Source of the DNA: a virus
Virus record (IMG/VR): IMGVR_UViG_3300017917_003339
Location: 28,495-92,494 of that record
DNA length: 64,000 nt
Strand: one strand, 5' to 3'
Within the stretch, counting starts at the first letter, position 1, and each line of letters starts with the position of its first letter. The notes beneath the pieces are model-generated. The model saw only the letters and a program-made list of their open reading frames with translations, did no database searches and had not been told where the DNA came from. Of the stretch, positions 14,352 to 56,828 are shown piece after piece. The position numbers and the translations under genes are program-made.

Positions 14352-14645
14352 TTAAATACCAAAATTTTCTTCACCCATTTTTTTTATTAACACAGCTTCA
14401 GAAATAGCATGTTTAGCATCTTCTAAATCCTTGGCAAATGTAACAACCTCACCATCCCATAGGGTTATTTTAATATAACCATCTTCACCCTTTTCAATGA
14501 CAGTGTTTTTCATATCTTCAACCATCTTAGCCAATCGTCTATTTCTACTTTCCCAGTCTCTGAGAAATCTTTTCTTTCCTTCTTCGGTCATAAAACGACC
14601 AGTAAAACTTAACCCTTTCATAATACTTAAATTTAATTTGAGCAC
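14352..14645 (-). CDS. hypothetical protein
   Basis: ORF; likely start MKGLSF. Confidence 0.55.
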   Translation of the reverse strand: MLKLNLSIMKGLSFTGRFMTEEGKKRFLRDWESRNRRLAKMVEDMKNTVIEKGEDGYIKITLWDGEVVTFAKDLEDAKHAISEAVLIKKMGEENFGI

Positions 14646-14713
14646 TAGACGGGCCTCGAACCCATGACCTCTCCCATACCAAGGGAGTGTTCTGCCTACT
14701 GAACTACAAGTGC
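14641..14713 (-). tRNA. tRNA-Thr(GGU)
   Basis: CTCCC-TTGGTAT-GGGAG. Confidence 0.9.
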
Positions 14714-14719
14714 ATTTAG

Positions 14720-14793
14720 AGCCTCCGACAGGAATCGAACCTGCGACCTTCTCCTTACAAGGGAGTTGCTCTGGCCTGCTGAGCTACGGAGGC
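14720..14793 (-). tRNA. tRNA-Thr(UGU)
   Basis: CTCC-CTTGTAA-GGAG. Confidence 0.92.
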
Positions 14794-14857
14794 ATAACGG
14801 CCTATAACGTTTGCCATTCGGTGCATTTTGTTTCTCGCAGAACACTTACTGCTTGTG

Positions 14858-14940
14858 TGAGAGTAGTAGGATTCGAACCTACTCAGGCATAGCCAACGGT
14901 TTTACAGACCGCCCCAGCTCTCCAACTCTGGCGTACTCCC
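14858..14940 (-). tRNA. tRNA-Tyr(GUA)
   Basis: GCGGT-CTGTAAA-ACCGT, long V arm. Confidence 0.92.
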
Positions 14941-14949
14941 AATATTTAG

Positions 14950-15028
14950 TGGGCCTAGTAGGAATCGAACCTACAAGAATTAACACGATTTTACAGACCG
15001 CTGAGCTCACCACCTGCTCAATAGACCC
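14950..15028 (-). tRNA. tRNA-Tyr(GUA)
   Basis: GCGGT-CTGTAAA-ATCGT. Confidence 0.85.
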
Positions 15029-15097
15029 AAGTTCAGGGTGGTGTATCGGTTTCAAATTAAAAGTTTGATGATAATGATTGCTGAAACCACCCTTTAG

Positions 15098-15169
15098 TTG
15101 GAGGATAGGGACTCGAACCCTAAAAACGACAGTCAAAGTGTCGTATGTTGCCAATTACATCATCCTCCA
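15098..15169 (-). tRNA. tRNA-Gln(UUG)
   Basis: CGACA-CTTTGAC-TGTCG. Confidence 0.9.
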
Positions 15170-15178
15170 ATATGTTAG

Positions 15179-15260
15179 TTGGGAAAGAGGGACTCGAACC
15201 CCCATGTACTTCGCGTCTTCTGGCTCAAAACCAGAGGTGTTACCATTACACCATTTCCCA
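15179..15260 (-). tRNA. tRNA-Gln(UUG) with extended variable region
   Basis: TCTGG-TTTTGAG-CCAGA. Confidence 0.85.
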
Positions 15261-15316
15261 AAATTTCTAATTCTATGCTTGTCCTCACGCAACTCTATGA
15301 ATTAGTAACAGTCTCA
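15261..15316 (-). repeat. tRNA-spacer structured repeat, copy 1
   Basis: GAGACTGTTA-CTAATTC-ATAG...GCATA-GAATTAG-AAATTT. Confidence 0.8.
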
Positions 15317-15323
15317 TCAACTG

Positions 15324-15396
15324 AGCGGAAGACGGGACTCGAACCCGCAACCCCCGACTTGGAAGGACGGTGCTCTACCAATTGAGCTACTTCCGC
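15324..15396 (-). tRNA. tRNA-Gly(UCC)
   Basis: loop CTTCCAA, GCGGAAG/CTTCCGC. Confidence 0.92.
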
Positions 15397-15455
15397 AAAT
15401 TTTTAATTCTATGCAGACACTTACAAATGGGCCCCTATGAATTAATAACAGTCTC
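15397..15455 (-). repeat. tRNA-spacer structured repeat, copy 2
   Basis: GAGACTGTTA-TTAATTC-ATAG...GCATA-GAATTAA-AAATTT. Confidence 0.8.
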
Positions 15456-15461
15456 TTCTCG

Positions 15462-15537
15462 TCGGGATGACTGGACTCGAACCAGCATGATGTCCTGCTC
15501 CCAAAGCAGGCGACTTAACCAATTAGTCCACATCCCG
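15462..15537 (-). tRNA. tRNA-Pro(UGG)
   Basis: CCTGC-TTTGGGA-GCAGG. Confidence 0.9.
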
Positions 15538-16074
15538 TTTAAATTTTTCTACATATTCTAAAACCGTTTCTTCTATTAAATTTCTATACCTACTATGCCA
15601 ATAAGCATGATGTGTTGCACATAGAGGTATTAAATTCTCAGGTTTATTATTGTTTCTATCCCCATCTAAATGGTGAACATCTAACAATAATTTTTCATCA
15701 CAAACAACACATTTATGTTCGTGGTGTAAGAAACATGTTGACCTGTATGCATGTTCTTTCCAGTTTGGGTTTTTATCACCACTTCTAAAGAAAGAGTTTG
15801 CACAAGCATGAGAACATGTAATTTTTTCTCTTTTTGAACCTGATTGAGTTTCAAATTCATTCTCACAAACAGGACAAATTTTAATTATTCGTTCATATTT
15901 GAGAAAATGTTTTTTCTTTCTATTAGGTTCAAATTTTAAACCATTTATTTCAAATAACGCATCTAACTTTTTATACCCAGCACCATTATTGCTGATATTT
16001 AACCTTTTACAAGCTTCATTTTTAGAACTACATTCTAGTATAATTTTTTCTAATTCTTCTTTTTCGATATTCAT
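15523..16074 (-). CDS. HNH homing endonuclease
   Basis: DVHHLDGDRNNNKPENLIPLCATHH; stop codon lies inside the downstream tRNA-Pro. Confidence 0.88.
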   Translation of the reverse strand: MNIEKEELEKIILECSSKNEACKRLNISNNGAGYKKLDALFEINGLKFEPNRKKKHFLKYERIIKICPVCENEFETQSGSKREKITCSHACANSFFRSGDKNPNWKEHAYRSTCFLHHEHKCVVCDEKLLLDVHHLDGDRNNNKPENLIPLCATHHAYWHSRYRNLIEETVLEYVEKFKRDVD

Positions 16075-16137
16075 AACTTATTTTTATTATAAATATCATC
16101 AAATGTCGAAAAAATCACTTTTGGGAAATTTTATTTT

Positions 16138-16181
16138 CTGCATCCCAAATGCAGCGGATTAGCCAACTTTCCCACTACCCG
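16138..16181 (-). pseudogene. truncated tRNA-Pro(UGG), 5' part only
   Basis: CGGGTAG..D arm..CTGCA-TTTGGGA-TGCAG, followed by AT-rich HNH upstream region; no T arm. Confidence 0.8.
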
Positions 16182-16190
16182 TAATATTTG

Positions 16191-16264
16191 TACCCCCGAA
16201 GGGACTCGAACCCATGACCCCCCGCTTAAAAGGCGGGTGCTCTAACCAACTGAGCTACGAAGGC
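16191..16264 (-). tRNA. tRNA-Lys(UUU)
   Basis: CCCGC-CTTTTAA-GCGGG. Confidence 0.92.
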
Positions 16265-16269
16265 ATTTG

Positions 16270-16342
16270 TTCCCCCGACGGGCCTCGAACCCGCTACCCA
16301 CTGGTTAAAAGCCAGTTGCCCGTCCACATGAGCTTCGAAGGA
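16270..16342 (-). tRNA. tRNA-Lys(UUU)
   Basis: ACTGG-CTTTTAA-CCAGT. Confidence 0.88.
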
Positions 16343-16359
16343 ATTTATATTTCTATTTG

Positions 16360-16431
16360 TTCCCCCGCCCAGAGTCGAACTGGATTCCGTAGATTAAAAG
16401 TCTACTGCATCACCACCAATGCTTCGAGGGA
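16360..16431 (-). tRNA. tRNA-Lys(UUU)
   Basis: GTAGA-CTTTTAA-TCTAC. Confidence 0.85.
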
Positions 16432-16515
16432 ATATGTATCTTGCCCCTCAAAACATTGAGGGAATTACTGTTTACTCTTTATCTTCTTTATTGTTTTCAT
16501 TGTTTTTATTTTATT

Positions 16516-16592
16516 TGGCCTCCCAGAAGGATTCGAACCTTCCATCCATAAGCCCCCAATGGGCTGCGCTTTTCCTACTAAGCTATGGGACG
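16516..16592 (-). tRNA. degenerate tRNA, possibly Gln(UUG)-derived
   Basis: Good D and T arms; AGCC-CATTGGG-GGCT loop lacks U33. Confidence 0.5.
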
Positions 16593-16607
16593 CATATTTT
16601 ATTTTTG

Positions 16608-16702
16608 TCTGGTAAACAGGATTCGAACCTGTGGTAGACACTACCTTTGTGCCCACATCGGATTCCAAGTCCGACCGCTTAAACCATCTCGCGCATTACC
16701 AG
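16608..16702 (-). tRNA. tRNA-Pro(UGG) with long variable arm
   Basis: TCGGA-CTTGGAA-TCCGA; acceptor CTGGTAA/TTACCAG. Confidence 0.75.
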
Positions 16703-16716
16703 TTATTTTGTTGCAT

Positions 16717-16753
16717 AAAAAAACCCAGTTTAGATTTTACTCTGAACTGGGTC
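16717..16753 (-). terminator. attenuator terminator of tRNA operon 1
   Basis: GACCCAGTTCAGA-GTAAAA-TCTAAACTGGG-T7. Confidence 0.9.
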
Positions 16754-16777: not shown

Positions 16778-16879
16778 TTATATTGTTGTCAAGTCTGAAA
16801 ACATGACATACCCAGTCGACCTGAACGGTTTCCCGCCCTTAGGTTGATATTGCGTTTGATATGTTTTAGTTGTTTTCAT
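16778..16879 (-). CDS. leader peptide 1 (K/T/Y/Q/P/G sensor): MKTTKTYQTQYQPKGGKPFRSTGYVMFSDLTTI
   Basis: Manual translation; lies between promoter and terminator; contains antiterminator ACTGGGT at 16810-16816. Confidence 0.88.
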   Translation of the reverse strand: MKTTKTYQTQYQPKGGKPFRSTGYVMFSDLTTI

Positions 16880-25061: not shown

Positions 25062-25235
25062 GTGTTTTGGTGCTAACTTTCCCACGATAGCACCGTTGCA
25101 GTCTTTTCTTTGGGAGAGGGTCCGAACTGCAAACCCAGAAGTTGTAGCACTTCCTCAGCTGTTACGCTCATTTCCTTTTAACACCTTCCATGGTATGTTA
25201 AAATTCTTTACGTAAGTGTAACCGTCTTACTGTAG

Positions 25236-25308
25236 TGGTACCGACTGGAATCGAACCAGTGACACATGGATTTTCAGTCCATTGCTCTACCAACTGAGCT
25301 ACGGTACC
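25236..25308 (-). tRNA. tRNA-Phe(GAA)
   Basis: ATGGA-CTGAAAA-TCCAT. Confidence 0.93.
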
Positions 25309-25536
25309 TTGAATGGATAAACATTTCCAAGTGTTTACCCTAGCAGTTTTTACGCACTAGCACGGCTAAAAAACTACAAAAAACCTACTCGATGTTTTAT
25401 GCTTGGACAAGGGGCTGCACGAGCAACAACCCAGTTGTTCTGGTACAACTTTAAACCCCAAACTTGAGTCGTTGGCACTGAGTCAATAGTTCCGACACAA
25501 AGATTCCTAGGTTTTTGTGTGTTTCCTATTTAGTCG

Positions 25537-25613
25537 TGGGGGAAGCTGGACTCGAACCAGCGACCTTTCGCTCTCCTAAGACAGCGAACATCTGCCAACT
25601 GAAATATTCCCCC
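25537..25613 (-). ncRNA. tRNA-like RNA with 10-nt anticodon loop
   Basis: TTCGCT-GTCTTAGGAG-AGCGAA; good acceptor and T arm. Confidence 0.55.
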
Positions 25614-25842
25614 GATTGCCTCGGTTAAAAACCGAGGGCTTGTTCCGTGACGCTACCGCCCCAGAGATTTACGTCTTTGTGTTTGATACCACCGCCAGTA
25701 CAAAGTTTCATTATCACAAAGATAAGAGGAGGAACTTTCCTATTGGCTACTACTCTCAAACACCCTACGATGTCTAATTAAAATTACAATGCAAATATAC
25801 TAAGTGTTTTTCAATCTTGCAAGTTTTTTAAAAGTTTTTTTT

Positions 25843-26469
25843 TTAAGAGTTAGGGTAATTTATCAACTTTTCACTAAAATAGTAAAAACTTGTTTTACCC
25901 ATTCTTTTAAACCCTAAATTTTCCCAAAACTTTTTAACTCTTTTATGGCTTGCTTTGTTTTCTCTGTCGTCAATCGCAAAAGGTATAACAACAAACAAAC
26001 TATCAGGTTTACCTATAGTGTCTATTATTTCATGTATTACAGCAGAACCAATACCCATACCTCTATTTTTTTCATTTATTCTAAATAAATCAATATAGAT
26101 ATATTCACTAAACTCTTCCAAACTAAATTTAGTTTTGCTTCTGCTATCAGAATCTTTGAAACACGCATCGAAACCATCCACAAAGTTTTGTGATATAATA
26201 TCACAAAAATCATAAGCTTCTTCAAACCCCATCCAAGAAATGTGACGCATAAAATTTATTTTAACTTCACCAATTTCTTCAACGACATCTTTATTTGTCT
26301 CTTCGTCATATGAATAATTATCAACTATTTTAACGTTAATATCTTTTATATGACCCTCACATTCATAATGGATAGATGTTGAATAGTTTATTTCTATCAA
26401 GTTTTCTCTCAAAAGTTCAATAGAATCTGCCACATCTTCACCTAGCATTAACTCAAAGTATTGTTCCAT
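25843..26469 (-). CDS. GNAT acetyltransferase
   Basis: NRGMGIGS, KFWENLGF. Confidence 0.8.
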   Translation of the reverse strand: MEQYFELMLGEDVADSIELLRENLIEINYSTSIHYECEGHIKDINVKIVDNYSYDEETNKDVVEEIGEVKINFMRHISWMGFEEAYDFCDIISQNFVDGFDACFKDSDSRSKTKFSLEEFSEYIYIDLFRINEKNRGMGIGSAVIHEIIDTIGKPDSLFVVIPFAIDDRENKASHKRVKKFWENLGFKRMGKTSFYYFSEKLINYPNS

Positions 26470-26537
26470 TTTTTTTATTATTATTATTATTAATACAATG
26501 CAAATATACTAAGTGTTTTTTAATGTTACAAGTATTT

Positions 26538-27053
26538 TTAAAATTTTTTTCCAATCAACAGATAATAGTTTGAATTTGTTTTTCTTACAGATGTTGATTC
26601 TGATGCGTATATAGGTTCATCAGAATCAATATAGTAATCACGTACTATATCATCTAAAACCTCTTTCAAACTACAACCATCTTCTGAAAAATAAAGTTCA
26701 GCATAGTTTACGTAATCATCCTCATCGATTCCAACAGTGTCTTCAATCATCGATGTATCACAATCATCACTAGTGATGACAATAATGTTATCCGAATTAT
26801 GTAAACTTTTTCTTGAAAAAGCTTCAATTTGTTCATAAAGACCCTTACCGATAATCGCGAAATCTTCACACGCATCAACTTCTGCTGGTACGATAACCAT
26901 TTGGTCACATTCCAATAATTGTTTATGTGAATAGGTACCACCTTTGAATTCAACTATTTCCAAGTTGTAATTGGAAAGAGTTTGGCGAACTCTAGCCACC
27001 ACATCTGGGTTAGCTTTGTTAGACTTCGCCAAGTACACTTTCATCTTTTTCAT
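26538..27053 (-). CDS. hypothetical protein
   Basis: ORF. Confidence 0.65.
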   Translation of the reverse strand: MKKMKVYLAKSNKANPDVVARVRQTLSNYNLEIVEFKGGTYSHKQLLECDQMVIVPAEVDACEDFAIIGKGLYEQIEAFSRKSLHNSDNIIVITSDDCDTSMIEDTVGIDEDDYVNYAELYFSEDGCSLKEVLDDIVRDYYIDSDEPIYASESTSVRKTNSNYYLLIGKKF

Positions 27054-27059
27054 AGCAGA

Positions 27060-27452
27060 TTACTTTTCAGTTTCTTCTTCACCGAAGTATTCGTTGTAGA
27101 TAGCTTCGGCTTCAGCCAATTCAACCTCTTTCAAAGCTAAATCCATACGACATTGGTGTAATTCGGAAACCCATTTAGCTGGTTCGAAATCTGGATGACC
27201 AGGTCTCAACGATGTTGTGTTTTCTGGTGCCAAGTCGGTTAACTTGTTGATAGTGCTTTTTAATTTAGATTTCTCTTTTTTCAAGTTGTTGATGAAAGAG
27301 TTTAACTCCAATACAACATCTTCTGCCAAGTCGCTTGCTCTATTAGCCAATGTAGCTGAATTGCTAGACGAAATCATTTTTTCAAATTTACTCATAAAGT
27401 TTATTTTTAATGTTATAATTAATACATTGCAAATATACGAGTAATTTTCCAA
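27060..27452 (-). CDS. hypothetical coiled-coil protein (likely start 27395, MSKFEK)
   Basis: ORF after promoter at ~27428. Confidence 0.65.
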   Translation of the reverse strand: MENYSYICNVLIITLKINFMSKFEKMISSSNSATLANRASDLAEDVVLELNSFINNLKKEKSKLKSTINKLTDLAPENTTSLRPGHPDFEPAKWVSELHQCRMDLALKEVELAEAEAIYNEYFGEEETEK

Positions 27453-27463
27453 TCTAGCAAATC

Positions 27464-29791
27464 TTACTTAAGAAATTTTTTGATTTTTTTGATTTCTTCA
27501 AATAATTTGTAGTTTTTGAAGTAAGAAGGGATATCTTTGATAAACATGAATCCATTATAGGTGCTGTTATCATCCTTATGGACCACAGTGGTATATATTG
27601 AACCGTTGGTTTTGATTTTGCTTCTGTCGAAGACAATTCTAACCAATTCGTTTTCTATCTCATTGGTGTTTTCATCTTGACCTAAATTTTTAAGTGTTTT
27701 TTCAAAAGCGGTAAGAATATCGTACTTGGTTTTCTTCAGAGCTTCAATTTCATCTTCTGAACGTTCATCTTCCTCATCGTTATCATATATTTTGTCATCT
27801 ATGATTTCGTAGATTTCATCTTTTATACGTTGCTCTATCGCAGCACTATCAATATTCATGTTATTATGTTCTCTTATGGTTTCCCATAATTCATCATAAC
27901 TGCTCGGTAACTCAGCTTGTTCAAGCATGTCCTCCAACAAAGATTCAAAAGCACTTTCAAAGTCTGTTTTGTCTTTGGTTAAAATATCAGCATCTGAAAT
28001 CAACGCACCAATAAAATTAGGTATTGCTATTGTTATCTCTTTATAGTCTCTACTACGATAACTATATCTATTTGATTCATATGTTATTATTTTTTGAAAC
28101 TTATTACTAAGGTCTGTAAAGGTTTCTTCTTCAGCTTCATCTTGAGCATTTGAATATACTTCGTCTATGTATTCTTTGATTGAATCTTCTACCCCAAATT
28201 TTTCTAACATAGAAGCTACAATTTCTTGTGTTGGGTTGATTCCATTTTTTCTTAACCTCGTAACCAATTCTGAATCTGTTAAGACTCTTTCAATAAAATG
28301 CTGATATTCTTCGTCAAGACCATCTCTCCATCCTTCAAAATAACTATCATTCCATGACTGCCAATTGCTATCTGACAATTCAGACATTAAGTCTTCCAAA
28401 TTATGACCAAACTTAACATCAGAACCAAATTCAAATGTAAGTTTATCTGAATAATCGCCATATGTAACAGATACTGTATCTGGTAGCATTTCATTTAAAG
28501 TTTCAATGGTCGCATCATCTTCTTTATACCTATGTTCAGCACTATGTTTTAACCCATCGATAATTGGTTTAATTTCAGAATAGTTTTTTACCAATTTACC
28601 AGAAGCATGTTTTTCAAGCATTTCTAATTTATCAGCACCGTTAATAGCAATGAAATTACCAATTTGTTTTTTGTTTAGGCTACTTAAATACGCTGAAATT
28701 CTATCGTCTGGTAAAACAACCAACTCAGTATACATCATACGTAGCCTTTTTCTATTCCAATTGTCAGCGTTCAAATAAGTGTCCAATTTTCTATCACTAA
28801 TTTGTGCATAACGCTTAACAAGTTTAGAATTGTTTTTGATACTAGCAAATTGCTCATCATCCAATCCAATACCAAATGAAACATACAAATTCTTTAAGTC
28901 ATCTGGCAGCATCAAGAATTGGTTAGTTGAAATTGGCCTTGCAATTGTTGGGTATATATCCAAATAAGCCTTTTTATCTTCGTAGCTAAGACTTTTAAAT
29001 TCGTTGTCGCTTATCCCTTTTTTGAATCTCTCATGTTGAGCTCTTTCTTCTGGTGTGAACGGTTTTGGTTTTAATACTTCTTTGATACCAGCTAACTTAG
29101 GGTTTATTTCAAGTATTTGGTTCCAACTCATTTGATTATCACCATCATTGTTTGCTGATGTAACTATGTATTGTGGTGTTTCGTTATCCTCAGGGTTAAG
29201 GTTCTTAGGTACTTGAATAACAAAGAAGTGGTATCTATTTTCAAAACCACCACTAACACCGCCTTTTTTTGCAATAGCAGCCAATTCTGTTTCAGTTGCT
29301 TTAACATCCTTAACAAAATAAAATGCTGGTTCGTATGGTTTAAATCTGTAAGTATAGAACATGTTTGAAGAGTCTGACCTTGCGACACACCAGCTATATG
29401 GCATACTACCCTTGTATTTGATACAAGCTCTTGGGCTATCAGCATAAAACACTTCTATACCATTTTTGTTGTACACAGCTTCACCAGTAACTTCAATGTC
29501 ATTTTGTTTCGACATAGTTGTTTTTACTGGTCTTTGACCTGACACATAATCTACAAGAGTTTCAAGGGAATTAAATGTTGGATAAGCGTCAATATCAAAA
29601 CGCTTTTCAACTGGAACGTTGATATTTAAGTCTGGATTAAGAGCTTCACGGTATTTACCATCTCTAATGTGTTTGAATTTTTCAATATAACTTCTAACAA
29701 TCTCTGGGTCATAATTTTGAGATATGAATTTCTGAGTTTGACTCTTGAAATCTTCGTTTAATAAATCCTTGAATATATGTGATAATTTCAT
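27464..29791 (-). CDS. large putative late/virion protein
   Basis: 775 aa; MKLSHIFKDLLNE N-terminus; ATATTTATA upstream; YSWCV motif. Confidence 0.6.
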   Translation of the reverse strand: MKLSHIFKDLLNEDFKSQTQKFISQNYDPEIVRSYIEKFKHIRDGKYREALNPDLNINVPVEKRFDIDAYPTFNSLETLVDYVSGQRPVKTTMSKQNDIEVTGEAVYNKNGIEVFYADSPRACIKYKGSMPYSWCVARSDSSNMFYTYRFKPYEPAFYFVKDVKATETELAAIAKKGGVSGGFENRYHFFVIQVPKNLNPEDNETPQYIVTSANNDGDNQMSWNQILEINPKLAGIKEVLKPKPFTPEERAQHERFKKGISDNEFKSLSYEDKKAYLDIYPTIARPISTNQFLMLPDDLKNLYVSFGIGLDDEQFASIKNNSKLVKRYAQISDRKLDTYLNADNWNRKRLRMMYTELVVLPDDRISAYLSSLNKKQIGNFIAINGADKLEMLEKHASGKLVKNYSEIKPIIDGLKHSAEHRYKEDDATIETLNEMLPDTVSVTYGDYSDKLTFEFGSDVKFGHNLEDLMSELSDSNWQSWNDSYFEGWRDGLDEEYQHFIERVLTDSELVTRLRKNGINPTQEIVASMLEKFGVEDSIKEYIDEVYSNAQDEAEEETFTDLSNKFQKIITYESNRYSYRSRDYKEITIAIPNFIGALISDADILTKDKTDFESAFESLLEDMLEQAELPSSYDELWETIREHNNMNIDSAAIEQRIKDEIYEIIDDKIYDNDEEDERSEDEIEALKKTKYDILTAFEKTLKNLGQDENTNEIENELVRIVFDRSKIKTNGSIYTTVVHKDDNSTYNGFMFIKDIPSYFKNYKLFEEIKKIKKFLK

Positions 29792-29823
29792 GCTAATTTT
29801 TTAATATAAATATCACAAAAAAA

Positions 29824-30348
29824 CTAAACAGACATCCTTTTAACCATCTTTCTGTATATTCTATCTTCAAAATCTTTCATCAAAGAATCTGGGATTCTAA
29901 TTCCTTTAGATTCGAATTCACCTATAATCTCACGTTTAAGAAATGTACCCTCAACAATTCCATCACCCCATTGGTCACACCAAAGTCCCCAGCTTTTCTT
30001 ACCAACAATCACAGCCTTGACTATGTTTGGGTGTCTGGTTACTATGGGTTTTCCACCAGAGTATTGTCCGTTATCGAATTTTCTAAATGTGTTTTTACCT
30101 TCGGATTCATTGACATCAAATTCAACATTGACGATAGAACCGCAAAAGGTAAGAATACCTTTCCTATAAGAAGATAGAAAGAAATTGAAGATTTCATTGA
30201 AGTTGTCGGAATACTTTGATAACTTTCTATCAAGTCTGTTACCAGTTTCCTTTTTGCGTAATTCAATACGCTCTTGTTTTGTTAGGCTCCCAAGCGGTCG
30301 CCTCCTGATTGTGTTGTTTTCATATTCTTGTGTTTTTTGTTTAACCAA
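29824..30348 (-). CDS. hypothetical protein
   Basis: ORF. Confidence 0.6.
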   Translation of the reverse strand: MVKQKTQEYENNTIRRRPLGSLTKQERIELRKKETGNRLDRKLSKYSDNFNEIFNFFLSSYRKGILTFCGSIVNVEFDVNESEGKNTFRKFDNGQYSGGKPIVTRHPNIVKAVIVGKKSWGLWCDQWGDGIVEGTFLKREIIGEFESKGIRIPDSLMKDFEDRIYRKMVKRMSV

Positions 30349-31085
30349 TTTAATTTATTCAAGTCAATACTTGAATTAGATTTTACAATATGACCATCTG
30401 GAAAATGTTTTATCATATCAGACATACTCAATACTGGAAAATCTTTGTCAAAGTTTGCGTTTGGATGTGACCAACCAAATTTAAACAACCAATTCAACAA
30501 CGCATCAACATCATAGTCATTATAATCATCCGTAGTACAGTTACCAGTTCTTTTAGATAACTTACTACCCTTATAAAACAATAAACCAGCATGTTGAACA
30601 TTTGGAAATTGTTTTTGACCATATACGTTGCAAATCATATCCCACAACTTTTGTTGTTTTGGTAAATTTGTAATGTGGTCCACACCTCTGATTATGTCTG
30701 TAATGTCATAATCATAGTCATCTAATATCGAAGCAAAATTATAGGTTGGATAACCGTTATCTCTAAGGATAACCATATCGTAATCTCCCATGTTTACGTT
30801 TAACGTACCATCGTCTTTTTTAAACCCTATAGCTGTTGCCACTTGTTTGTATCGGTCAAGTCTGCTACTTTGCTTAAATGTTACATCATAATTTAACCCA
30901 AAGTAATTCATTTGTTGATATATGAAATCTACATCTGAATCATTGTTCCTAGACAAATCTGTGTCATCGATTCTAAGGATAAAATTACCATCATTTGATT
31001 TACTCAATAAATAATTGAATAAAGCAGTACGTAATGTCCCTAAATGAAATTTGCCCGTTGGTGAAGGGGCAATTCTTGTTTTCAT
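30282..31085 (-). CDS. glutamyl-tRNA synthetase-like catalytic-domain protein (GluRS/GluQ-like)
   Basis: TRIAPSPTG.FHLG, LRIDDTD, IIRGVDH, KLSKR; no anticodon-binding domain. Confidence 0.85.
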   Translation of the reverse strand: MKTRIAPSPTGKFHLGTLRTALFNYLLSKSNDGNFILRIDDTDLSRNNDSDVDFIYQQMNYFGLNYDVTFKQSSRLDRYKQVATAIGFKKDDGTLNVNMGDYDMVILRDNGYPTYNFASILDDYDYDITDIIRGVDHITNLPKQQKLWDMICNVYGQKQFPNVQHAGLLFYKGSKLSKRTGNCTTDDYNDYDVDALLNWLFKFGWSHPNANFDKDFPVLSMSDMIKHFPDGHIVKSNSSIDLNKLNWLNKKHKNMKTTQSGGDRLGA

Positions 31086-31106
31086 AATACTATTTTTTAT
31101 ATTTTG

Positions 31107-31179
31107 TGGAGCTGACGGGAGTTGAACCCGCATCCTCTACCTTGCAAAGGTAGCGCTCAGCCAGTTGAGCTACAGCCCC
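31107..31179 (-). tRNA. tRNA-Ala(UGC)
   Basis: CTACC-TTTGCAA-GGTAG; G3:U70. Confidence 0.92.
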
Positions 31180-31180
31180 A

Positions 31181-31235
31181 AAATTTCTAATTCTACGCTT
31201 ACAATATGTAGTTCTATGAATTAGTAACAGTCTCA
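31181..31235 (-). repeat. tRNA-spacer structured repeat, copy 3
   Basis: GAGACTGTTA-CTAATTC-ATAG...GCGTA-GAATTAG-AAATTT. Confidence 0.8.
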
Positions 31236-31241
31236 TCTGTG

Positions 31242-31362
31242 CGGACGCAGTGGGACTCGAACCCACAGCTTTTTCGTGACAGGAAAATTAACTAATGCTG
31301 CTGGAGATAACCTTGTCAGGTTATGACTTGTTTTTAACATGTTACCCTTACACCATACGTCC
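31242..31362 (-). tRNA. tRNA-Asp(GUC) with inserted helix+CAGCA module
   Basis: GGACGTA/TGCGTCC, TTTTC-CTGTCAC-GAAAA; ~50-nt insertion after the D arm. Confidence 0.7.
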
Positions 31363-31500
31363 AAAAATACCTTTACATTTCAAAGGTTAAGCAGGTTTAG
31401 TTGCGGACTTTCCTTCCAGTCAGTGCTTCTTTTTCCAGAGATTGCCTCTATACGCACGTTATCTGACAATTTTAACACGAAGCGACCGTGTTAGCAATCG

Positions 31501-31574
31501 TGGAGACTGCGGGAGTCGAACCCGCGACCTTCTGCGTGCAAGGCAGACGCTCTAGCCAGCTGAGCTAAGTCCCC
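31501..31574 (-). tRNA. tRNA-Ala(UGC)
   Basis: TCTGC-CTTGCAC-GCAGA. Confidence 0.93.
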
Positions 31575-31584
31575 AAATATTTTA

Positions 31585-31655
31585 GAAGCGCAATTGGTTT
31601 CGAACCAATGTTTCCAGCTACGCGCCAGCGTCCTAAGCCCCTAGACGATACACTT
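31585..31655 (-). pseudogene. degenerate tRNA (Glu/Asp-type D arm, collapsed anticodon loop)
   Basis: TCGTCTAGGGGCTTAGGAC D arm, ATTGG-TTCGAAA-CCAAT T arm. Confidence 0.5.
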
Positions 31656-31757
31656 TAACTACTCTCAATACAACTGCCATCATATATTGAGTAGAATGGC
31701 CTTGTTACTTCACCTTTCAGTTGGCAGACCTACTTGGTTTTTCACTCACCTTTTTTG

Positions 31758-31831
31758 CCGAGATACTGGGATTCGAACCCAGTTCGCACGCCGTGACAGG
31801 GCGGCATCCTTCGCCAGTGGACCTTACCTCG
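31758..31831 (-). tRNA. tRNA-Asp(GUC)
   Basis: CGCC-CTGTCAC-GGCG. Confidence 0.8.
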
Positions 31832-31837
31832 AATCTA

Positions 31838-31914
31838 TGGCGGTCTGTACGGGACTCGAACCCGTGACCTTCGCCGTGACAGGGCGACATTGTAACCAAC
31901 TCTACTAACAGACC
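31838..31914 (-). tRNA. tRNA-Asp(GUC)
   Basis: TCGCC-CTGTCAC-GGCGA, encoded CCA. Confidence 0.92.
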
Positions 31915-31920
31915 AAATAT

Positions 31921-31996
31921 TGGTAGTCTGTACGGGATTCGAACCCGTGTTTTACCCGTGAAAGGGGCACGTCCTGACCAACTAGACGAACAGACC
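31921..31996 (-). tRNA. tRNA-Glu(UUC)
   Basis: GCCC-CTTTCAC-GGGT, encoded CCA. Confidence 0.92.
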
Positions 31997-32030
31997 ATTT
32001 AGATTTTTGATTACTGGAATCTTAACCAGA

Positions 32031-32669
32031 TTATTTTCTCCCTTTTAACCAACCTTCGTTTAAATAAGTTTCAAGGTCTTCTTTTTTAATTTTTTTGTTA
32101 GTACCATCCTTGGTTATCCAACATGTACCATATTGACTGTTTGTTTCACCAGTCCCAGTACCTTTTCTTTTTTCTGATATTAATTGTTTAGTTTCTTCCG
32201 AATGACATTTACCTTCAAAAGTATTATAATTAATTTTACCTAATTTATGTGCTTTTTTTAATGTTTCAGATGATATTTCTGTATGTTTTTTAAAAAACTC
32301 TTCATCAATTTTTAATTTGTCAGAAAACGCTTTTCCACCAGCCTTAATACATTTCTCCATATGTTCTTTATTAGCAAAACCACCTTGACCACCTTCTTTT
32401 AAATTCATACATAAACCATCAGATATCAACTCTTTTGTTATAATTTCAATCTCTCTAAGAACTAATTTTTCTCTTGTTGGTAAAAATTCTAATATTTCTT
32501 TTGTATGGTTTTCAACACCATATTTCCTAATACTATATCTTAATATCTTACCACTTCCCATGTAACCGTCATCTAATTTCGTAGTTGAATGCATTCCAAT
32601 ATACCATCTTCCTGTTACATTACATGTTGTTTTATATATGTAATGTATATTTGCTTTTTTTCTTGCCAT
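32031..32669 (-). CDS. GIY-YIG (Seg-like) homing endonuclease with NUMOD3
   Basis: YIYKTT..WYIGMH..YMGSG; HSEETKQLISE. Confidence 0.9.
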   Translation of the reverse strand: MARKKANIHYIYKTTCNVTGRWYIGMHSTTKLDDGYMGSGKILRYSIRKYGVENHTKEILEFLPTREKLVLREIEIITKELISDGLCMNLKEGGQGGFANKEHMEKCIKAGGKAFSDKLKIDEEFFKKHTEISSETLKKAHKLGKINYNTFEGKCHSEETKQLISEKRKGTGTGETNSQYGTCWITKDGTNKKIKKEDLETYLNEGWLKGRK

Positions 32670-32726
32670 TTCAGTTTATCTTTAATAATAAATATCAAGA
32701 TAAACTGAAAAGTACAAAAAAGTTTA

Positions 32727-32805: not shown

Positions 32806-32862
32806 ATGTTTATCGTTTCGGTTACCCCCACGCAGTGCACTTACGCAGGGACCTACTCCTTG

Positions 32863-33026: not shown

Positions 33027-33028
33027 AG

Positions 33029-33101: not shown

Positions 33102-33104
33102 TTT

Positions 33105-53333: not shown

Positions 53334-53378
53334 TACCGATATTTTTAAATAAATATCTGAAAATAATGAATAAGACAG

Positions 53379-53463
53379 CGGAGAGTGTGGGATTCGAACC
53401 CACGGGCCCCTTTCGAGGCCACGGTTTAGCAAACCGCTCCAATAACCACTCTGGCAACTCTCC
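53379..53463 (-). tRNA. tRNA-Ser(GCU)
   Basis: GCGGT-TTGCTAA-ACCGT. Confidence 0.93.
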
Positions 53464-53667
53464 ATAAATAAAATAACAATCCCACCCTTGGGTCGTGACG
53501 GGCTACAAAGGGATTAGTGGAATTCCGTGTGTAAGTCACCACTGTACCAGTCCGTATCTACCTTGAATTTAATCAGTCACTGTTGGGAGGCTACCCCTAT
53601 CAACACACCTAGTTTCTTTTCAGGAATATCTTGAAGGTGAAACAAACCTTGATTGTTATTTTATTTG

Positions 53668-53740
53668 TACCCCCACAGGGATTCGAACCCCGATTATACA
53701 TCTTAGAAGGATGTTGCATTTCCATTTATGCTATGAAGGC
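53668..53740 (-). tRNA. tRNA-Arg(UCU)
   Basis: ACATC-CTTCTAA-GATGT. Confidence 0.85.
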
Positions 53741-53747
53741 ATGTATT

Positions 53748-53824
53748 TGGTGACTCTGGTAGGACTCGAACCTACGACCCACAGATTAGAAATCTGTTGC
53801 TCTATCCAACTGAGCTACAGAGCC
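53748..53824 (-). tRNA. tRNA-Arg(UCU)
   Basis: ACAGA-TTTCTAA-TCTGT. Confidence 0.93.
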
Positions 53825-53834
53825 AATTATTTAG

Positions 53835-53908
53835 TGACCACGGTAGGATTCGAACCTACAACCTCCGCAGTCGTAATGCGGTGCGCTATCCAGTTGCGCC
53901 ACGTGGCC
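53835..53908 (-). tRNA. tRNA-Arg(ACG)
   Basis: CCGCA-TTACGAC-TGCGG. Confidence 0.93.
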
Positions 53909-53916
53909 AATTTTAG

Positions 53917-53986
53917 TACCGCATTCGGGAGTCGAACCCGATTATTCATCTTTATGAGGGATGAACGTTTTCCAATAACCTGCGGC
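53917..53986 (-). tRNA. atypical tRNA(CAU)
   Basis: loop CTCATAA, weak D arm. Confidence 0.55.
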
Positions 53987-54131
53987 TTCTTTCAATCTTT
54001 GCTTTAATCTCAGCAATCTTTTCTGGACTTGGATTTCGGTCTACTGTATAGGTAACACCCATTTTATCCAAGTAATCATAAAGACGCTGCATATCAGCTT
54101 CACTTGTCTTTTCCATTTTTGTTTTATTTTG

Positions 54132-54205
54132 CGGCCTCGACAGGACTCGAACCTGTAACCCTTGAGTTAACAACTCACCGCTCTAACCATTATAGCTACG
54201 AGGCC
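54132..54205 (-). tRNA. tRNA-Asn(GUU)
   Basis: TGAG-TTGTTAA-CTCA. Confidence 0.9.
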
Positions 54206-54215
54206 TTATTATTTG

Positions 54216-54288
54216 AGGGCGGAGTGGGACTCGAACCCACGACCAGTTGATTAACAGTCAACTGCTCTACCGACTGAGCTATCCACCC
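54216..54288 (-). tRNA. tRNA-Asn(GUU)
   Basis: GTTGA-CTGTTAA-TCAAC. Confidence 0.9.
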
Positions 54289-54296
54289 TTTTCTTG

Positions 54297-54368
54297 CTCT
54301 TCGGGGGAATTTTGAAATCCCGACCATCGCCTTAACAGGGCGCCGCTCTGCCTCTGAGCTACCGAAGA
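54297..54368 (-). tRNA. tRNA-Asn(GUU)
   Basis: CGCC-CTGTTAA-GGCG; variant T loop TTCAAAA. Confidence 0.85.
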
Positions 54369-54476
54369 ATTTAATATTTTTACCGAAACACCGAGTACCA
54401 CAATTACGGTGTGCCTCCACGCCATTCCGTGGACCAATGCTGTTTTTACCCGTGGTTACACCATTCGGTAGGGTAG

Positions 54477-54574
54477 TGGATGTACTGGGACTCGAACCCA
54501 GACTAACGGTACAGACTTACCTCTCCATAGAGTAATTCCAATTGATTATGTCAGTCTTATTAGTAATTACACCC
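54477..54574 (-). ncRNA. tRNA-like RNA (acceptor and T arm, replaced core)
   Basis: GGGTGTA/TACATCC, CTGGG-TTCGAGT-CCCAG. Confidence 0.45.
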
Positions 54575-54579
54575 TTTAG

Positions 54580-54653
54580 TGGTCCATACAGGGCTCGAAC
54601 CTGTGACCTTCGCGTTATGAGCGCGCCGCTCTAACCAACTGAGCTAATGGACC
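54580..54653 (-). tRNA. tRNA-Met/Ile2(CAU)
   Basis: CGCG-CTCATAA-CGCG. Confidence 0.9.
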
Positions 54654-54896
54654 CTATTTTAATTTATCGAAAAGATACCTTAAATAATCTTCGTTAATAT
54701 CATCATTGAATTCATCTTCTTCTAAATAGCTTTCTTCTATTTCAACATTTTCGTCTAATCTTTTATCCAGAACATCAAGAGCAATTTTTGTTACTTCTTT
54801 TTCTCTACCTTTTAATTCTGGAGCGTCAATCAAAATAAATAAACCAACCAACGATTCAACAATTTTTATTACGTTCTCACTGTATTCTCTTTTCAT
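54654..54896 (-). CDS. acidic hypothetical protein within tRNA operon 4
   Basis: MKREYSENV... Confidence 0.6.
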   Translation of the reverse strand: MKREYSENVIKIVESLVGLFILIDAPELKGREKEVTKIALDVLDKRLDENVEIEESYLEEDEFNDDINEDYLRYLFDKLK

Positions 54897-54898
54897 AG

Positions 54899-54982
54899 TT
54901 GTGACGATGGGACTCGAACCCATATTGTGCTATAAGCACCCAGCGTATCAGGCTGGTGACTAAACCATTCATCCACGTCACA
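54899..54982 (-). tRNA. tRNA-Ile(GAU) with long variable arm
   Basis: CCAGC-CTGATAC-GCTGG; V arm GTGCT-TAT-AGCAC. Confidence 0.8.
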
Positions 54983-54989
54983 GTGTTTG

Positions 54990-55063
54990 TAGGACCGAGC
55001 GGACTCGAACCGCTAACCTCTTGAGTATCAGTCAAGTGCTCTAACCAGTTGAGCTACGGTCCT
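54990..55063 (-). tRNA. tRNA-Ile(GAU)
   Basis: CTTGA-CTGATAC-TCAAG. Confidence 0.92.
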
Positions 55064-55064
55064 A

Positions 55065-55125
55065 TAATTCGTTGCAAAGATACAACTTATTTTTTAATTT
55101 CCAAATTTTTCAACGAACTTTTTTT
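55065..55125 (-). promoter_or_regulatory. internal promoter cassette, near-identical to 33105-33165
   Basis: GTTGTATCTTTGCAACG. Confidence 0.7.
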
Positions 55126-55126
55126 G

Positions 55127-55213
55127 AAGAGAGGGTGGGACTCGAACCCACACACCTCTAGGGCCTACCGCTTTCAAGGCGGTTGCAGTTAGGCCAACTC
55201 TGCTTACCTCTCC
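55127..55213 (-). tRNA. tRNA-Ser(UGA)
   Basis: CCGC-CTTGAAA-GCGG. Confidence 0.85.
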
Positions 55214-55222
55214 ATTATTTAG

Positions 55223-55293
55223 CACGGCCACTAGGACTCGAACCTAGAACTTTGGTTTTGGAGACCAAGATTATACCATTTCACTATGGCCGT
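55223..55293 (-). tRNA. tRNA-Trp(CCA)
   Basis: TTGGT-CTCCAAA-ACCAA. Confidence 0.88.
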
Positions 55294-55301
55294 ATTTAAT
55301 T

Positions 55302-55395
55302 TGTTATCGAGGGATTCGAACCCTCACACCCTCACAGGGGTTACGGTTTACCTGCCGCAGTCATTACCCAGTTTACTCTTTTGACTCAGATAACA
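55302..55395 (-). ncRNA. degenerate class-II tRNA-like RNA
   Basis: TGTTATC/GATAACA, canonical T arm, irregular anticodon loop. Confidence 0.5.
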
Positions 55396-55402
55396 AATTT
55401 AG

Positions 55403-55475
55403 GGTGAACGAGGAATTTTGAAATCCCGACCTTCTGAATCACAATCAGACGCTCTGCCTCTGAGCTACGCACACC
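55403..55475 (-). tRNA. tRNA-His(GUG)
   Basis: TCTGA-TTGTGAT-TCAGA, G-1/C73. Confidence 0.85.
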
Positions 55476-55479
55476 ATGT

Positions 55480-56127
55480 TTATTTTCTCCCTTTTAACCA
55501 ACCATCATTTAGATAAGTTTCAAGGTCTTCTTTTTTAATCTTTTTATTAGCACCATCCTTGGTTATCCAACAAGTACCATATTGACTATTTGATTCACCA
55601 ACACCAGTACCTTTTCTTATTTCAGATATCAACTGTTTAGTTTCTTCAGAATGTTTTTTCCCATTCCAATCATAATTAACATTCCTATCAATTTTACCTT
55701 CTTCATATGCTTTTTTAATCGATTTAGACAACGTATCACTTTTTTTCTTATTCCACTCTGGGTCTTGTCTTAAAAGTTTTTGTTTTTCATTTGATTTAAT
55801 AGCATTTAATTTTTGTTCTTCACTAGTAAACCCACGACCACCTTCACCGCCAACAATTAAATTCATACATAAGTACTCTTTAATTAATTCTTTATTAACT
55901 ATCTCACGTTCTCGCTTAGCTAATTTTTCTCTAGTTGGTAAATATTCAAGGATTTCTTTTGTGTGGTTTTCTACGCCATACTTTCTAATTGAATATCTCA
56001 ACCTTTTACCACTTCCCATATAACCATCTTCTAGGTTACACGTACTATGCATCCCTACATAATATTTTCCAGTTACATTACATGTTGTTTTATATATGTA
56101 ATGTATTGTTTTTTCTTTTCTTGCCAT
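55480..56127 (-). CDS. GIY-YIG (Seg-like) homing endonuclease, paralog of 32031-32669
   Basis: MARKEKTIHYIYKTTCNVTGKYYVGMH; near-identical C-terminus. Confidence 0.9.
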   Translation of the reverse strand: MARKEKTIHYIYKTTCNVTGKYYVGMHSTCNLEDGYMGSGKRLRYSIRKYGVENHTKEILEYLPTREKLAKREREIVNKELIKEYLCMNLIVGGEGGRGFTSEEQKLNAIKSNEKQKLLRQDPEWNKKKSDTLSKSIKKAYEEGKIDRNVNYDWNGKKHSEETKQLISEIRKGTGVGESNSQYGTCWITKDGANKKIKKEDLETYLNDGWLKGRK

Positions 56128-56180
56128 TGTCGTATATCTTTTTAATATAAATATACGACAAAGTACAAAAAAGTCAAGTG

Positions 56181-56255
56181 GGTGACTGATGGGGTTCGAA
56201 CCCACGGCCTTCTGAACCACAATCAGACGCTCTAACCAGCTGAGCTACAGCCACC
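56181..56255 (-). tRNA. tRNA-His(GUG)
   Basis: TCTGA-TTGTGGT-TCAGA. Confidence 0.93.
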
Positions 56256-56324
56256 ATGTTTAATTTACTTTCACCGCATTTTTGCGGTGATTATCACCGC
56301 TATTCACCGCATGTGTAAATTTTG

Positions 56325-56415
56325 CGGAGGAGGTGAGACTCGAACTCACACGTCCCTTTCGGGTACCCTCGGTTTTCAAGACCGCTGCCGCTAGGCCAAC
56401 TCGGCTTACTCCTCC
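56325..56415 (-). tRNA. tRNA-Ser(UGA)
   Basis: CGGT-CTTGAAA-ACCG, G73. Confidence 0.93.
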
Positions 56416-56596
56416 GTATTTATAATAACAAAAATTTCAATGAACCCACCTTCTTTTTTAAATTTCAGTTCGCCAGTATATCCACTAGCATCTGCCATTT
56501 TTCTGTACTTGTCAACTATGAGGTCAAAATTCTCTGTTAAGTCGACAGCTTTTTCTCTACCTAAACATTTTACTAATTCACCCATAGTCTTAAAAT

Positions 56597-56631
56597 AAAA
56601 AAACCCGACTTAGTTTTAACTTGTCGGGTTT
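56597..56631 (-). terminator. attenuator terminator of tRNA operon 4
   Basis: AAACCCGAC-AAGTTAAAACTAA-GTCGGG-T7. Confidence 0.9.
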
Positions 56632-56653
56632 ATGTTTTATATTGTTTTAAGGT

Positions 56654-56755
56654 TTAGGTCCAAGTCCCTCCACCTTTACAATTAGACATACCCGACTCTG
56701 GGTGACTATTGCGTCTCCAATTTCTCGAAATCATATGTATGTTAATTGTTCTCAT
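56654..56755 (-). CDS. leader peptide 4 (R/I/N/H/M/S/W sensor): MRTINIHMISRNWRRNSHPESGMSNCKGGGTWT
   Basis: C-terminal part of track ORF 56654-56836; antiterminator GTCGGGT at 56690-56696. Confidence 0.88.
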   Translation of the reverse strand: MRTINIHMISRNWRRNSHPESGMSNCKGGGTWT

Positions 56756-56791
56756 TGTTGTTTTATTTTTAATGTTGTTTTTTAAATTCTT

Positions 56792-56828
56792 TGCAAAGAT
56801 ACGAAGACTTTTTATACGAGTCAAGTTT
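56792..56828 (-). promoter_or_regulatory. promoter of tRNA operon 4
   Basis: ACTTGACT...GTATCTTTGCA. Confidence 0.75.

Follow-up and report, generated by a model that had tools for sequence, protein, structure and literature searches.

Four probable leader-peptide attenuators gate the tRNA operons of a phage with Bacteroidota-type promoters

Introduction

What determines when a phage transcribes its own tRNA genes? To our knowledge, the regulation of these genes is largely unknown, and the usual view is that phage tRNAs are made constitutively, either fitting codon usage or replacing tRNAs lost to defense. The question is raised by a stretch of 64,000 nucleotides (nt), here called the window, from the 92.5-kb IMG/VR virus contig IMGVR_UViG_3300017917_003339 (CheckV completeness, 26%), in which four tRNA arrays each lie behind a short open reading frame (ORF) and a terminator hairpin. 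An earlier note, made from the letters of this DNA, had proposed that these ORFs are leader peptides of attenuators and that the four arrays share out the 20 amino acids. The analysis described here indicates that the four loci are very probably paralogous ribosome-mediated transcription attenuators, one gating each phage tRNA operon. Judged from sequence, the phage would probably make a given tRNA block only when the codons of that block are decoded slowly.

Four promoter-leader-array units

All features of the attenuator units and tRNA arrays are on the minus strand. The promoters, leader ORFs, and main tRNA arrays are as follows.

Promoter P1: 16955..16988, minus strand, CTTGAC ... TATCTTTGCA with -7 box TAnnTTTG, exact motif match
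Leader ORF L1: 16778..16879, minus strand, 33 codons, codons 2-18 entirely K/T/Y/Q/P/G
Array 1: 16702 to 14640, minus strand, Pro, Gln, Lys x3, Pro, Gly, Gln x2, Tyr x2, Thr x2 (ARAGORN, Rfam), with anticodons Gly-UCC, Thr-UGU, and Thr-GGU; a remote Gly-GCC gene is at 12304-12376, minus strand
Promoter P2: 33489..33522, minus strand, exact motif match
Leader ORF L2: 33324..33413, minus strand, 29 codons, codons 8-18 FDFAFFAAEED
Array 2 core: 33251 to 31106, minus strand, Phe x2, an odd tRNA-like gene, Glu, Asp x2, Ala x2 (ARAGORN, Rfam)
Promoter P3: 35632..35665, minus strand, exact motif match
Leader ORF L3: 35519..35602, minus strand, 27 codons, codons 8-17 LVLLGLCLLV
Array 3: 34165..35451, minus strand, Cys, Val, Leu-UAA, Leu-CAA, Leu-UAG, Val, Leu-AAG (ARAGORN, Rfam)
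Promoter P4: 56792..56825, minus strand, exact motif match
Leader ORF L4: 56654..56755, minus strand, 33 codons, R/I/N/H/M/S/W in 16 of codons 2-18
Array 4 tRNA block: 56415 to 53378, minus strand, Ser x3, His x2, Trp, Ile x2, one CAU tRNA, Asn x3, Arg x3

The 34-nt promoter motif, CTTGACTNGTAT-N12-TATNTTTGCA, occurs four times without mismatch in the window, where the expected number is 0.02, and the whole 92.5-kb contig has no further matches at two or fewer mismatches. Each copy is followed by an ORF of 27 to 33 codons, a hairpin with a U-tract, and a tRNA array; the four exact copies bear out the shared promoter that the earlier note had described at these loci. The TAnnTTTG box corresponds to the -7 element of Bacteroidota promoters. 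A scan of cellular genomes with the promoter pattern returned 101 loci, and most of those listed are in Bacteroidota, a result of use only for assigning the phylum of the host. The leader-tRNA layout was present at none of the 101 cellular loci, and a relaxed pattern found eight new loci in viral contigs, without leader or tRNAs. Elsewhere, the motif occurs in tandem, 380 nt apart and with no leader or tRNA downstream, in a 184-kb contig (L050, G005:C1:85472-85885), and before a conserved short ORF (MRVIVGIDGILE...) without tRNAs at L008, L009, L012, L021, L030, and L034.

The leader ORFs start 29 to 75 nt past the promoter motif, behind A-rich 5' untranslated regions (UTRs) without a Shine-Dalgarno sequence, and all four read exactly as the earlier note gave them in position and sequence. 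Its claim that the putative sensor codons of each leader match the downstream array holds overall for L1 to L4, with one out-of-group Gly in L3 and one Thr in L4 as exceptions. Counting residues that belong to the set of the leader's own array as in-group, codons 2 to 18 of the four leaders score 55 of 68. When the 20 amino acids were partitioned at random into groups of 6, 4, 3, and 7 in a permutation test of leader composition against array isotypes, the mean score was 17.0 and the maximum was 45, and none of 200,000 partitions reached the observed value. The true assignment of leaders to arrays gives 55, and any alternative assignment gives 35 or less. From codon 19 to the stop codon, which provides an internal control, there is no enrichment (15 of 50 in-group, 13.3 expected).

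The correspondence extends from amino acids to isoacceptors. The four arrays contain 27 anticodon species, and each of these has at least one sensor codon that it reads, including the remote Gly-GCC (via GGC), both Thr, both Arg, both Ser, and all four Leu isoacceptors. With the peptides held fixed and synonymous codons resampled according to phage codon usage from 48 ORFs, full coverage of this kind had a P value of 0.009. Rare codons are used in the sensors, among them GGC (6%), CGC (2%), CCG (6%), and CTG (2%), as well as GGG, ACG, and TCG.

Mutually exclusive RNA helices

In enterobacterial attenuators, regions 1 and 2 pair as a protector (1:2), regions 2 and 3 as an antiterminator (2:3), and regions 3 and 4 as an intrinsic terminator (3:4). 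The corresponding elements of the four units are listed here.

L1 region 2: 16809..16822, minus strand, core ACTGGGT at 16810-16816; pairs with sensor codons (1:2) or with the terminator 5' arm (2:3)
L1 terminator: 16716..16752, minus strand, regions 3 and 4, stem 16723-16752, U-tract; tRNA-Pro is 13 nt on
L2 region 2 core: 33343-33348, minus strand, AGGGTC
L2 terminator: 33263..33295, minus strand, stem 33270-33295, U-tract; tRNA-Phe is 11 nt on
L3 region 2 core: 35535-35541, minus strand, TGGGCT(A)
L3 terminator: 35459..35495, minus strand, stem 35465-35495, U-tract; directly before tRNA-Cys
L4 region 2: 56689-56697, minus strand, AGTCGGGTA
L4 terminator: 56597..56631, minus strand, ACCCGAC ... 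GTCGGGT, U-tract; a 59-amino-acid ORF is next

The terminators are GC-rich hairpins of -10.2 to -14.4 kcal/mol followed by a run of 6 or 7 T. Only 11 to 13 nt separate the U-tract from the first tRNA in units 1 to 3, which leaves no room for a second promoter, so that the tRNAs of these units would be made only by read-through. The GGG segment that had been noted as complementary to the 5' side of the terminator is present in all four leaders, at about codons 20 to 26, and each copy can pair with that side.

In folds of full leader transcripts, region 2 folds back onto the sensor codons (1:2) and the terminator (3:4) forms. At its base, helix 1:2 consists of a conserved (A)ACATA (codons 5 to 7) paired with TATGT or TGTGT just 3' of the GGG. 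Transcripts cut before the 3' arm of the terminator were folded for seven leaders, four from the window and three from the relative G003. With no ribosome placed, 2:3 was the minimum-energy fold in six of the seven; the seventh, L3, formed 2:3 only with a ribosome footprint on its sensor codons. A footprint at about codons 17 to 27 abolished 2:3 pairing in these folds.

Between the L1 stop codon and its terminator lies a mini-hairpin with a GNRA loop, GTAC-GCAA-GTAC (16762-16773, minus strand), which is kept in relatives by compensatory changes (GTAG...CTAC, ATAC...GTAT). The loop that joins regions 2 and 3 in the 2:3 fold is made shorter by this hairpin, which may be a pause or junction element.

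Leaders and arrays in related phages

Relatives were gathered by promoter-pattern scans of IMG/VR and metagenomes, among them G001, a complete genome of 362 kb, and contigs of 306, 248, and 205 kb; a megablast search against deposited phage genomes gave no match. The promoter occurs in G001 at the four tRNA units only, as three exact copies and one with a single mismatch. In all homologous loci, a leader ORF follows each promoter copy that precedes a tRNA array, for a total of 30 distinct leader sequences.

Pairing between the ORF and the terminator arm is retained as sequences diverge. The best duplex in each of the 30 leaders lies within codons 14 to 30, with its core at about codons 20 to 26, and has an energy of -9.9 to -16.5 kcal/mol. 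For example, the L1-type 2:3 pair ACTGGGT/ACCCAGT is replaced by GGATTGGGT/ACCCAATCC and by GCTAGGT/GCCTAGC with complementarity kept, and the L4-type pair GTCGGGT/ACCCGAC is replaced by GCAGGT/ACCTG(AC), the 3' arm having changed to match, and by GAATCAGG/CCTGATTC in G003. L2-type leaders carry AGGGTC/GACCCT or AGGTC/GACCT, and TCGGACT/AGTCCG is another complementary pair among the leaders. Cognate arms average -12.96 kcal/mol versus -9.30 kcal/mol for noncognate arms, and none of 20,000 permutations did better (p < 5e-5).

On alignments, the 2:3 helix is paired at 89.6% in L1-type and 83.8% in L4-type leaders, with three compensatory pairs in each, compared to 54% or less in a slid-partner control. 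Helix 1:2 of L4-type leaders is 95% paired versus 47% or less in the control, and indels within the ORF in the L4-type alignment are multiples of three. In all 30 leaders the 1:2 fold beats codon-shuffled sensors (mean z = -2.3), with region 2 paired upstream at a probability of 0.74.

The earlier note had suggested examining related phages for co-variation of leaders with arrays, and its idea would have been undermined by homologous arrays with unrelated leaders. The opposite was found, since leader composition follows the array through both a merger of arrays and a move of tRNA-Glu. G003 has three arrays rather than four, and the in-group score of its sensors is 45 of 51 versus 17 expected. 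Its Cys-Val-Leu-Asp-Phe-Ala array corresponds to arrays 2 and 3 of the window merged, minus Glu, and is preceded by a single leader with the sensor ...LALLDCTAVLFDAFDAL, rich in L/A/D/C/V/F and with E absent. Three tRNA-Glu genes are instead in the Pro-Gln-Tyr-Lys-Gly-Thr array of G003, where the leader has gained one E (KTYTTYQGTKQPKGEGQ). In the metagenome contig L157, whose array reads Pro, Gln, Tyr, Glu, Lys, Thr, the leader contains three E (KTYYTTYQEKPEQEPKGTK). E is absent from the sensor of every L1-type leader whose array lacks Glu. The co-variation of leaders with the change of array by tRNA-Glu indicates that the match is upheld by selection; the relocation may have been a single event.

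Among 33-codon L1-type leaders, 10 of 11 sensor substitutions, scored by eye, stay in-group, so that composition is conserved and order is not. With the 30 leaders placed in register at region 2, in-group residues make up a fraction of at least 0.87 at positions 16 to 4 codons upstream; the fraction is 0.23 to 0.5 nearer than 4 codons upstream and onward. This drop falls at the point at which a stalled ribosome would, with its 3' edge, begin covering region 2.

Proposed mechanism and alternative explanations

The architecture, the composition statistics, and the co-variation were read from the sequences themselves; from them we infer leader translation, stalling, and the direction of the switch. 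Host RNA polymerase would initiate at the strong Bacteroidota-type promoter, and a ribosome would load on the A-rich 5' UTR, which lacks a Shine-Dalgarno sequence, and translate the leader of 27 to 33 codons, in which almost all of the sensor codons (about 2 to 17) are predicted to be read by tRNAs of the same operon. If an aminoacyl-tRNA of that set were scarce, the ribosome would stall on the sensor and hold region 1 open, and the freed region 2 would pair with the 5' arm of the terminator (2:3), so that no terminator would form and polymerase would enter the tRNA genes. If decoding were fast, the ribosome would reach the stop codon, region 2 would be covered or recaptured by region 1 (1:2), and the terminator (3:4) would then form and end transcription about 10 to 15 nt before the first tRNA. 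Because the output would be the same tRNAs that decode the sensor, each unit would act as a negative-feedback loop on decoding capacity. Four separate channels could in this way answer a shortage of matching tRNAs caused by codon-usage mismatch, host shut-off, or tRNA-cleaving defenses. A response to amino acid starvation would be unavoidable, as the sensor could not distinguish a missing tRNA from an uncharged one.

The attenuation logic of the trp/his/pheST type invoked by the earlier note is supported by the match of sensor to array, the limit of enrichment at region 2, the three helices, the lack of a second promoter, and the co-variation in relatives; all sequence-level predictions that could be computed hold. 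Several findings weigh on the other side. The 2:3 helices are short (6 to 9 base pairs), and in most leaders the complete terminator wins at equilibrium whatever the ribosome position. Given that dominance, which conformation the switch adopts must be decided kinetically, as it is in classical attenuators; the equilibrium fold is for this reason uninformative, and folds cut before region 4 were used instead. Codons 2 to 7 of L2 and L3 are mostly out-of-group and form the conserved base of helix 1:2, which explains why the first codons of L2 to L4 are similar and mostly out-of-group (MR.T..NI). The Thr(CGU)-like and aberrant genes of array 2 lack representation in their leader, and the distal Lys, Trp, and CUA tRNAs of G003 are absent from theirs. 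The 30 distinct leaders represent a small number of related lineages, and their counts therefore lack independence. A pair-count shuffle control was not significant for the L4-type family because of little variation, and the L2-type leader of G001 has weak, shifted 2:3 pairing (-9.9 kcal/mol).

Could simpler roles for the same parts account for these data? One is that the hairpins are plain leaky terminators or insulators, that the ORFs are chance frames that are not translated, and that the composition match is coincidental or a by-product. Short ORFs and U-tracts are indeed common in an AT-rich genome, and the equilibrium fold favors the terminator. This explanation is nevertheless highly improbable: the match is far beyond chance (0 of 200,000) and extends to anticodon sampling, enrichment stops where ribosome geometry predicts, leader content shifts with tRNA genes that have moved in relatives, region 2 and the terminator arm co-vary, and an ORF is present at every array-preceding copy of the promoter. 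Slightly less credible still is that the short ORFs encode functional peptides, for example membrane or regulatory ones, and that the terminator merely ends the gene. The hydrophobicity of L3 and of the merged leader and the fairly conserved C-terminal parts of leaders within families would suit such peptides. However, residue order in the sensor drifts while set membership is kept, the four paralogues are wholly different in composition and each matches its own array, the conserved C-terminal codons coincide with helices 1:2 and 2:3, and a peptide gene gives no reason for a tRNA array to lie 11 to 13 nt past its terminator.

Within the attenuation explanation, a tentative extension is that the four units together form a four-channel, codon-resolved gauge of decoding that polls every isoacceptor, in which a shortfall, including one caused by anticodon nucleases, would cause only the affected tRNA group to be transcribed; the gauge would act jointly with the neighboring tRNA repair genes for a kinase, two RNA ligases, and a nucleotidyltransferase, as an on-demand system of both counter-defense and supply. 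If so, these would be the first tRNA genes controlled by translation of their own codons. Somewhat less likely is that the attenuators, while real, were chiefly selected as counter-defense, switching on a tRNA group under anticodon-nuclease attack together with repair enzymes. This was the emphasis of the earlier note, and it is a special case of attenuation rather than a different mechanism. A four-channel sensor would permit a group-specific response, and genes with matches to tRNA repair and maturation functions lie between arrays 3 and 4. Against it, the sequence does not separate nuclease attack from ordinary imbalance of demand and supply, and the grouping of the tRNAs bears no obvious relation to the target sets known for anticodon nucleases. 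The kinase and ligase of T4 are a repair pair for PrrC-cut tRNA-Lys that counters an anticodon nuclease. The matches between arrays 3 and 4 are listed here.

37025-38275, minus strand: nucleotidyltransferase, possibly CCA-adding (PHROG match)
43767-44807, minus strand: RNA ligase (PHROG match)
45483-46883, minus strand: ATP-dependent DNA ligase (PHROG match)
48560-49684, minus strand: "RNA ligase and tail fiber protein attachment catalyst" family (PHROG match)
50871-51809, minus strand: polynucleotide-kinase-like ATPase (PHROG match)

Taken with the protein made up of a GluRS catalytic domain in array 2, the genes between arrays 3 and 4 fit a putative tRNA-centered module.

Relation to known attenuators and tRNA operons

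The closest structural likeness is to the thr (Thr and Ile), ilvGMEDA (Ile, Leu, and Val), trpL, hisL, pheL, and leuL leaders, with which the phage units share a short leader of regulatory codons and three mutually exclusive helices. The multivalent thr and ilvGMEDA leaders also have several amino acids sensed by one leader. In contrast to the enterobacterial leaders, the targets in the phage are tRNAs and not biosynthetic enzymes, so that the product would feed back on the sensor; each leader would sense up to 6 or 7 amino acids and up to nine anticodon species; four paralogous units share out the tRNA set; and the units are phage borne, with a Bacteroidota-type promoter and no Shine-Dalgarno sequence. 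The classical target class, amino acid biosynthesis or aminoacyl-tRNA synthetase genes, is replaced here by tRNAs, homing endonucleases, a 59-amino-acid ORF, and one gene with a GluRS catalytic domain. At the gathering score, Rfam matches in the window were to tRNA only, with no Trp, His, Thr, Leu, or Phe leader family, and no T-box match at the same thresholds.

Two other systems report on translation itself. In E. coli pheST, leader-peptide attenuation (pheM leader) acts on a part of the translation apparatus on which decoding of the sensed codon depends; it controls a synthetase and senses a single amino acid, whereas the phage units control tRNA genes. The T-box riboswitch binds one uncharged tRNA via a specifier codon, with no ribosome needed. 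It is similar in using a terminator and antiterminator to report tRNA status for translation-related genes, and it differs in that the sensor in the phage is an ORF of many codons. The E. coli pheU and pheV genes were considered as a precedent for a Phe-rich leader before tRNA genes and rejected, as the MG1655 loci show the promoter directly before the tRNA and no leader ORF.

In Anabaena sp. PCC 7120, the trn operon is a long supernumerary tRNA array that is reported to be kept low until translational stress (PMC8421152, PMC10272220) and to be controlled by the ribbon-helix-helix repressor TrcR (PMC10272220). This array, switched on when translation is impaired, is the nearest functional analogue in print; it uses a repressor and is a single cellular array, in contrast to the leader peptides, terminators, and isotype-sorted channels of the phage. 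The earlier note knew of no described case of attenuators on tRNA genes, and full-text literature searches aimed at control of tRNA genes or arrays by leader peptides or attenuation found no such account.

If the attenuation explanation is true, decoding speed would feed back directly on tRNA supply, and a textbook mechanism would be extended to tRNA targets and to 6 or 7 amino acids per leader. Each unit would be a compact, testable part of about 230 nt, able to report in Bacteroidota how available a defined group of tRNAs is. They would also give a handle on what large phage tRNA sets answer, be it demand, host shut-off, or anticodon nucleases.

Array content and neighboring genes

ARAGORN called 46 tRNA genes in the window, and Rfam returned 47 tRNA matches at the gathering score. 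The remaining features of the four operons are as follows.

Operon 1: 11674..16702, minus strand, array 1, an HNH endonuclease gene, small ORFs, Gly-GCC, and a weak tRNA-like gene at 11963-12050
Likely end terminator of operon 1: 11674-11695, minus strand
Array 2 with distal genes that may share its transcript: 25235..33251, minus strand
Array 2, Phe to Asp part: minus strand, Phe x2, odd gene 32727-32805, GIY-YIG/NUMOD3 endonuclease, Glu, Asp x2
Array 2, rest: Thr(CGU)-like gene 31585-31655, Ala, 121-nt tRNA-like gene 31242-31362, Ala, protein with GluRS catalytic domain 30282-31133, ORFs
Array 2 distal tRNA-like genes: 25536-25613 and Phe 25235-25308, minus strand
Operon 4, 5' part: 53378..56585, minus strand, 59-amino-acid ORF, Ser-UGA, His, NUMOD3 endonuclease gene, His, Trp, Ser-UGA
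Operon 4, 3' part: minus strand, Ile x2, CAU tRNA, Asn x3, Arg-ACG, Arg-UCU x2, Ser-GCU

The division of all 20 amino acids among four nonoverlapping sets stands for the canonical, high-scoring tRNAs. It does not extend to the Thr(CGU)-like and aberrant genes of array 2, and the CAU tRNA is ambiguous. Further exceptions are the tRNA-like genes that G001 has outside its arrays and the distal Lys, Trp, and CUA tRNAs of G003, and the contig itself is a fragment. With G1-C72 and an anticodon stem without GGG/CCC, the one CAU tRNA (array 4) is no initiator; Met and Ile2 are both possible identities. The Thr(CGU)-like gene (31585-31655, minus strand) is weak and has a clear counterpart in the relative L145. 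An aberrant tRNA-like RNA is present in array 2, as the earlier note had seen, at 32727-32805 (minus strand), where ARAGORN reads SeC/tca and not CAU; its anticodon arm is unusual, and the gene is kept in relatives. The 121-nt tRNA-like gene at 31242-31362 (minus strand) is intron-like, the one at 25536-25613 (minus strand) has an abnormal anticodon loop, and the matches at 24541-24625 and 11963-12050 (minus strand) were made by Rfam only.

Arrays 1, 2, and 4 are interrupted by homing-endonuclease-like genes on the minus strand (HNH at 15523-16074, GIY-YIG with NUMOD3 at 32031-32669, and NUMOD3 at 55480-56220). The ORF of 59 amino acids (56406-56585, minus strand) separates attenuator 4 from the first tRNA, whose first bases it overlaps; it has no family match, and its start is kept in relatives. 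A GNAT acetyltransferase gene (33549-34295, minus strand) is located between array 3 and promoter P2. The terminator search detected none on the minus strand at the end of array 3, and P3 transcripts may therefore continue into attenuator 2.

Near tRNA-Glu, -Asp, and -Ala in array 2, the gene at 30282-31133 (minus strand) encodes 283 amino acids with only the class I catalytic domain of GluRS/GlnRS. The protein scores 224 bits against gltX_bact, under the cut-off, and GluQRS models are weaker. It may modify tRNA-Asp in the manner of GluQRS, or it may be a truncated GluRS controlled by the Phe/Glu/Asp/Ala attenuator.

Outside its arrays, G001 has seven further tRNA-like genes: two CAU, a Cys, a CUA suppressor-like gene, intron-bearing Ser and Thr genes, and one that ARAGORN calls "???". 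tRNAs with a CUA anticodon, labeled "Pyl" by ARAGORN and resembling amber suppressors, are located at G003:C1:93271-93343 and G001:C1:44350-44423, and none was seen in the fragmentary contig that contains the window. These CUA tRNAs hint at a possible reassignment of TAG in this phage group.

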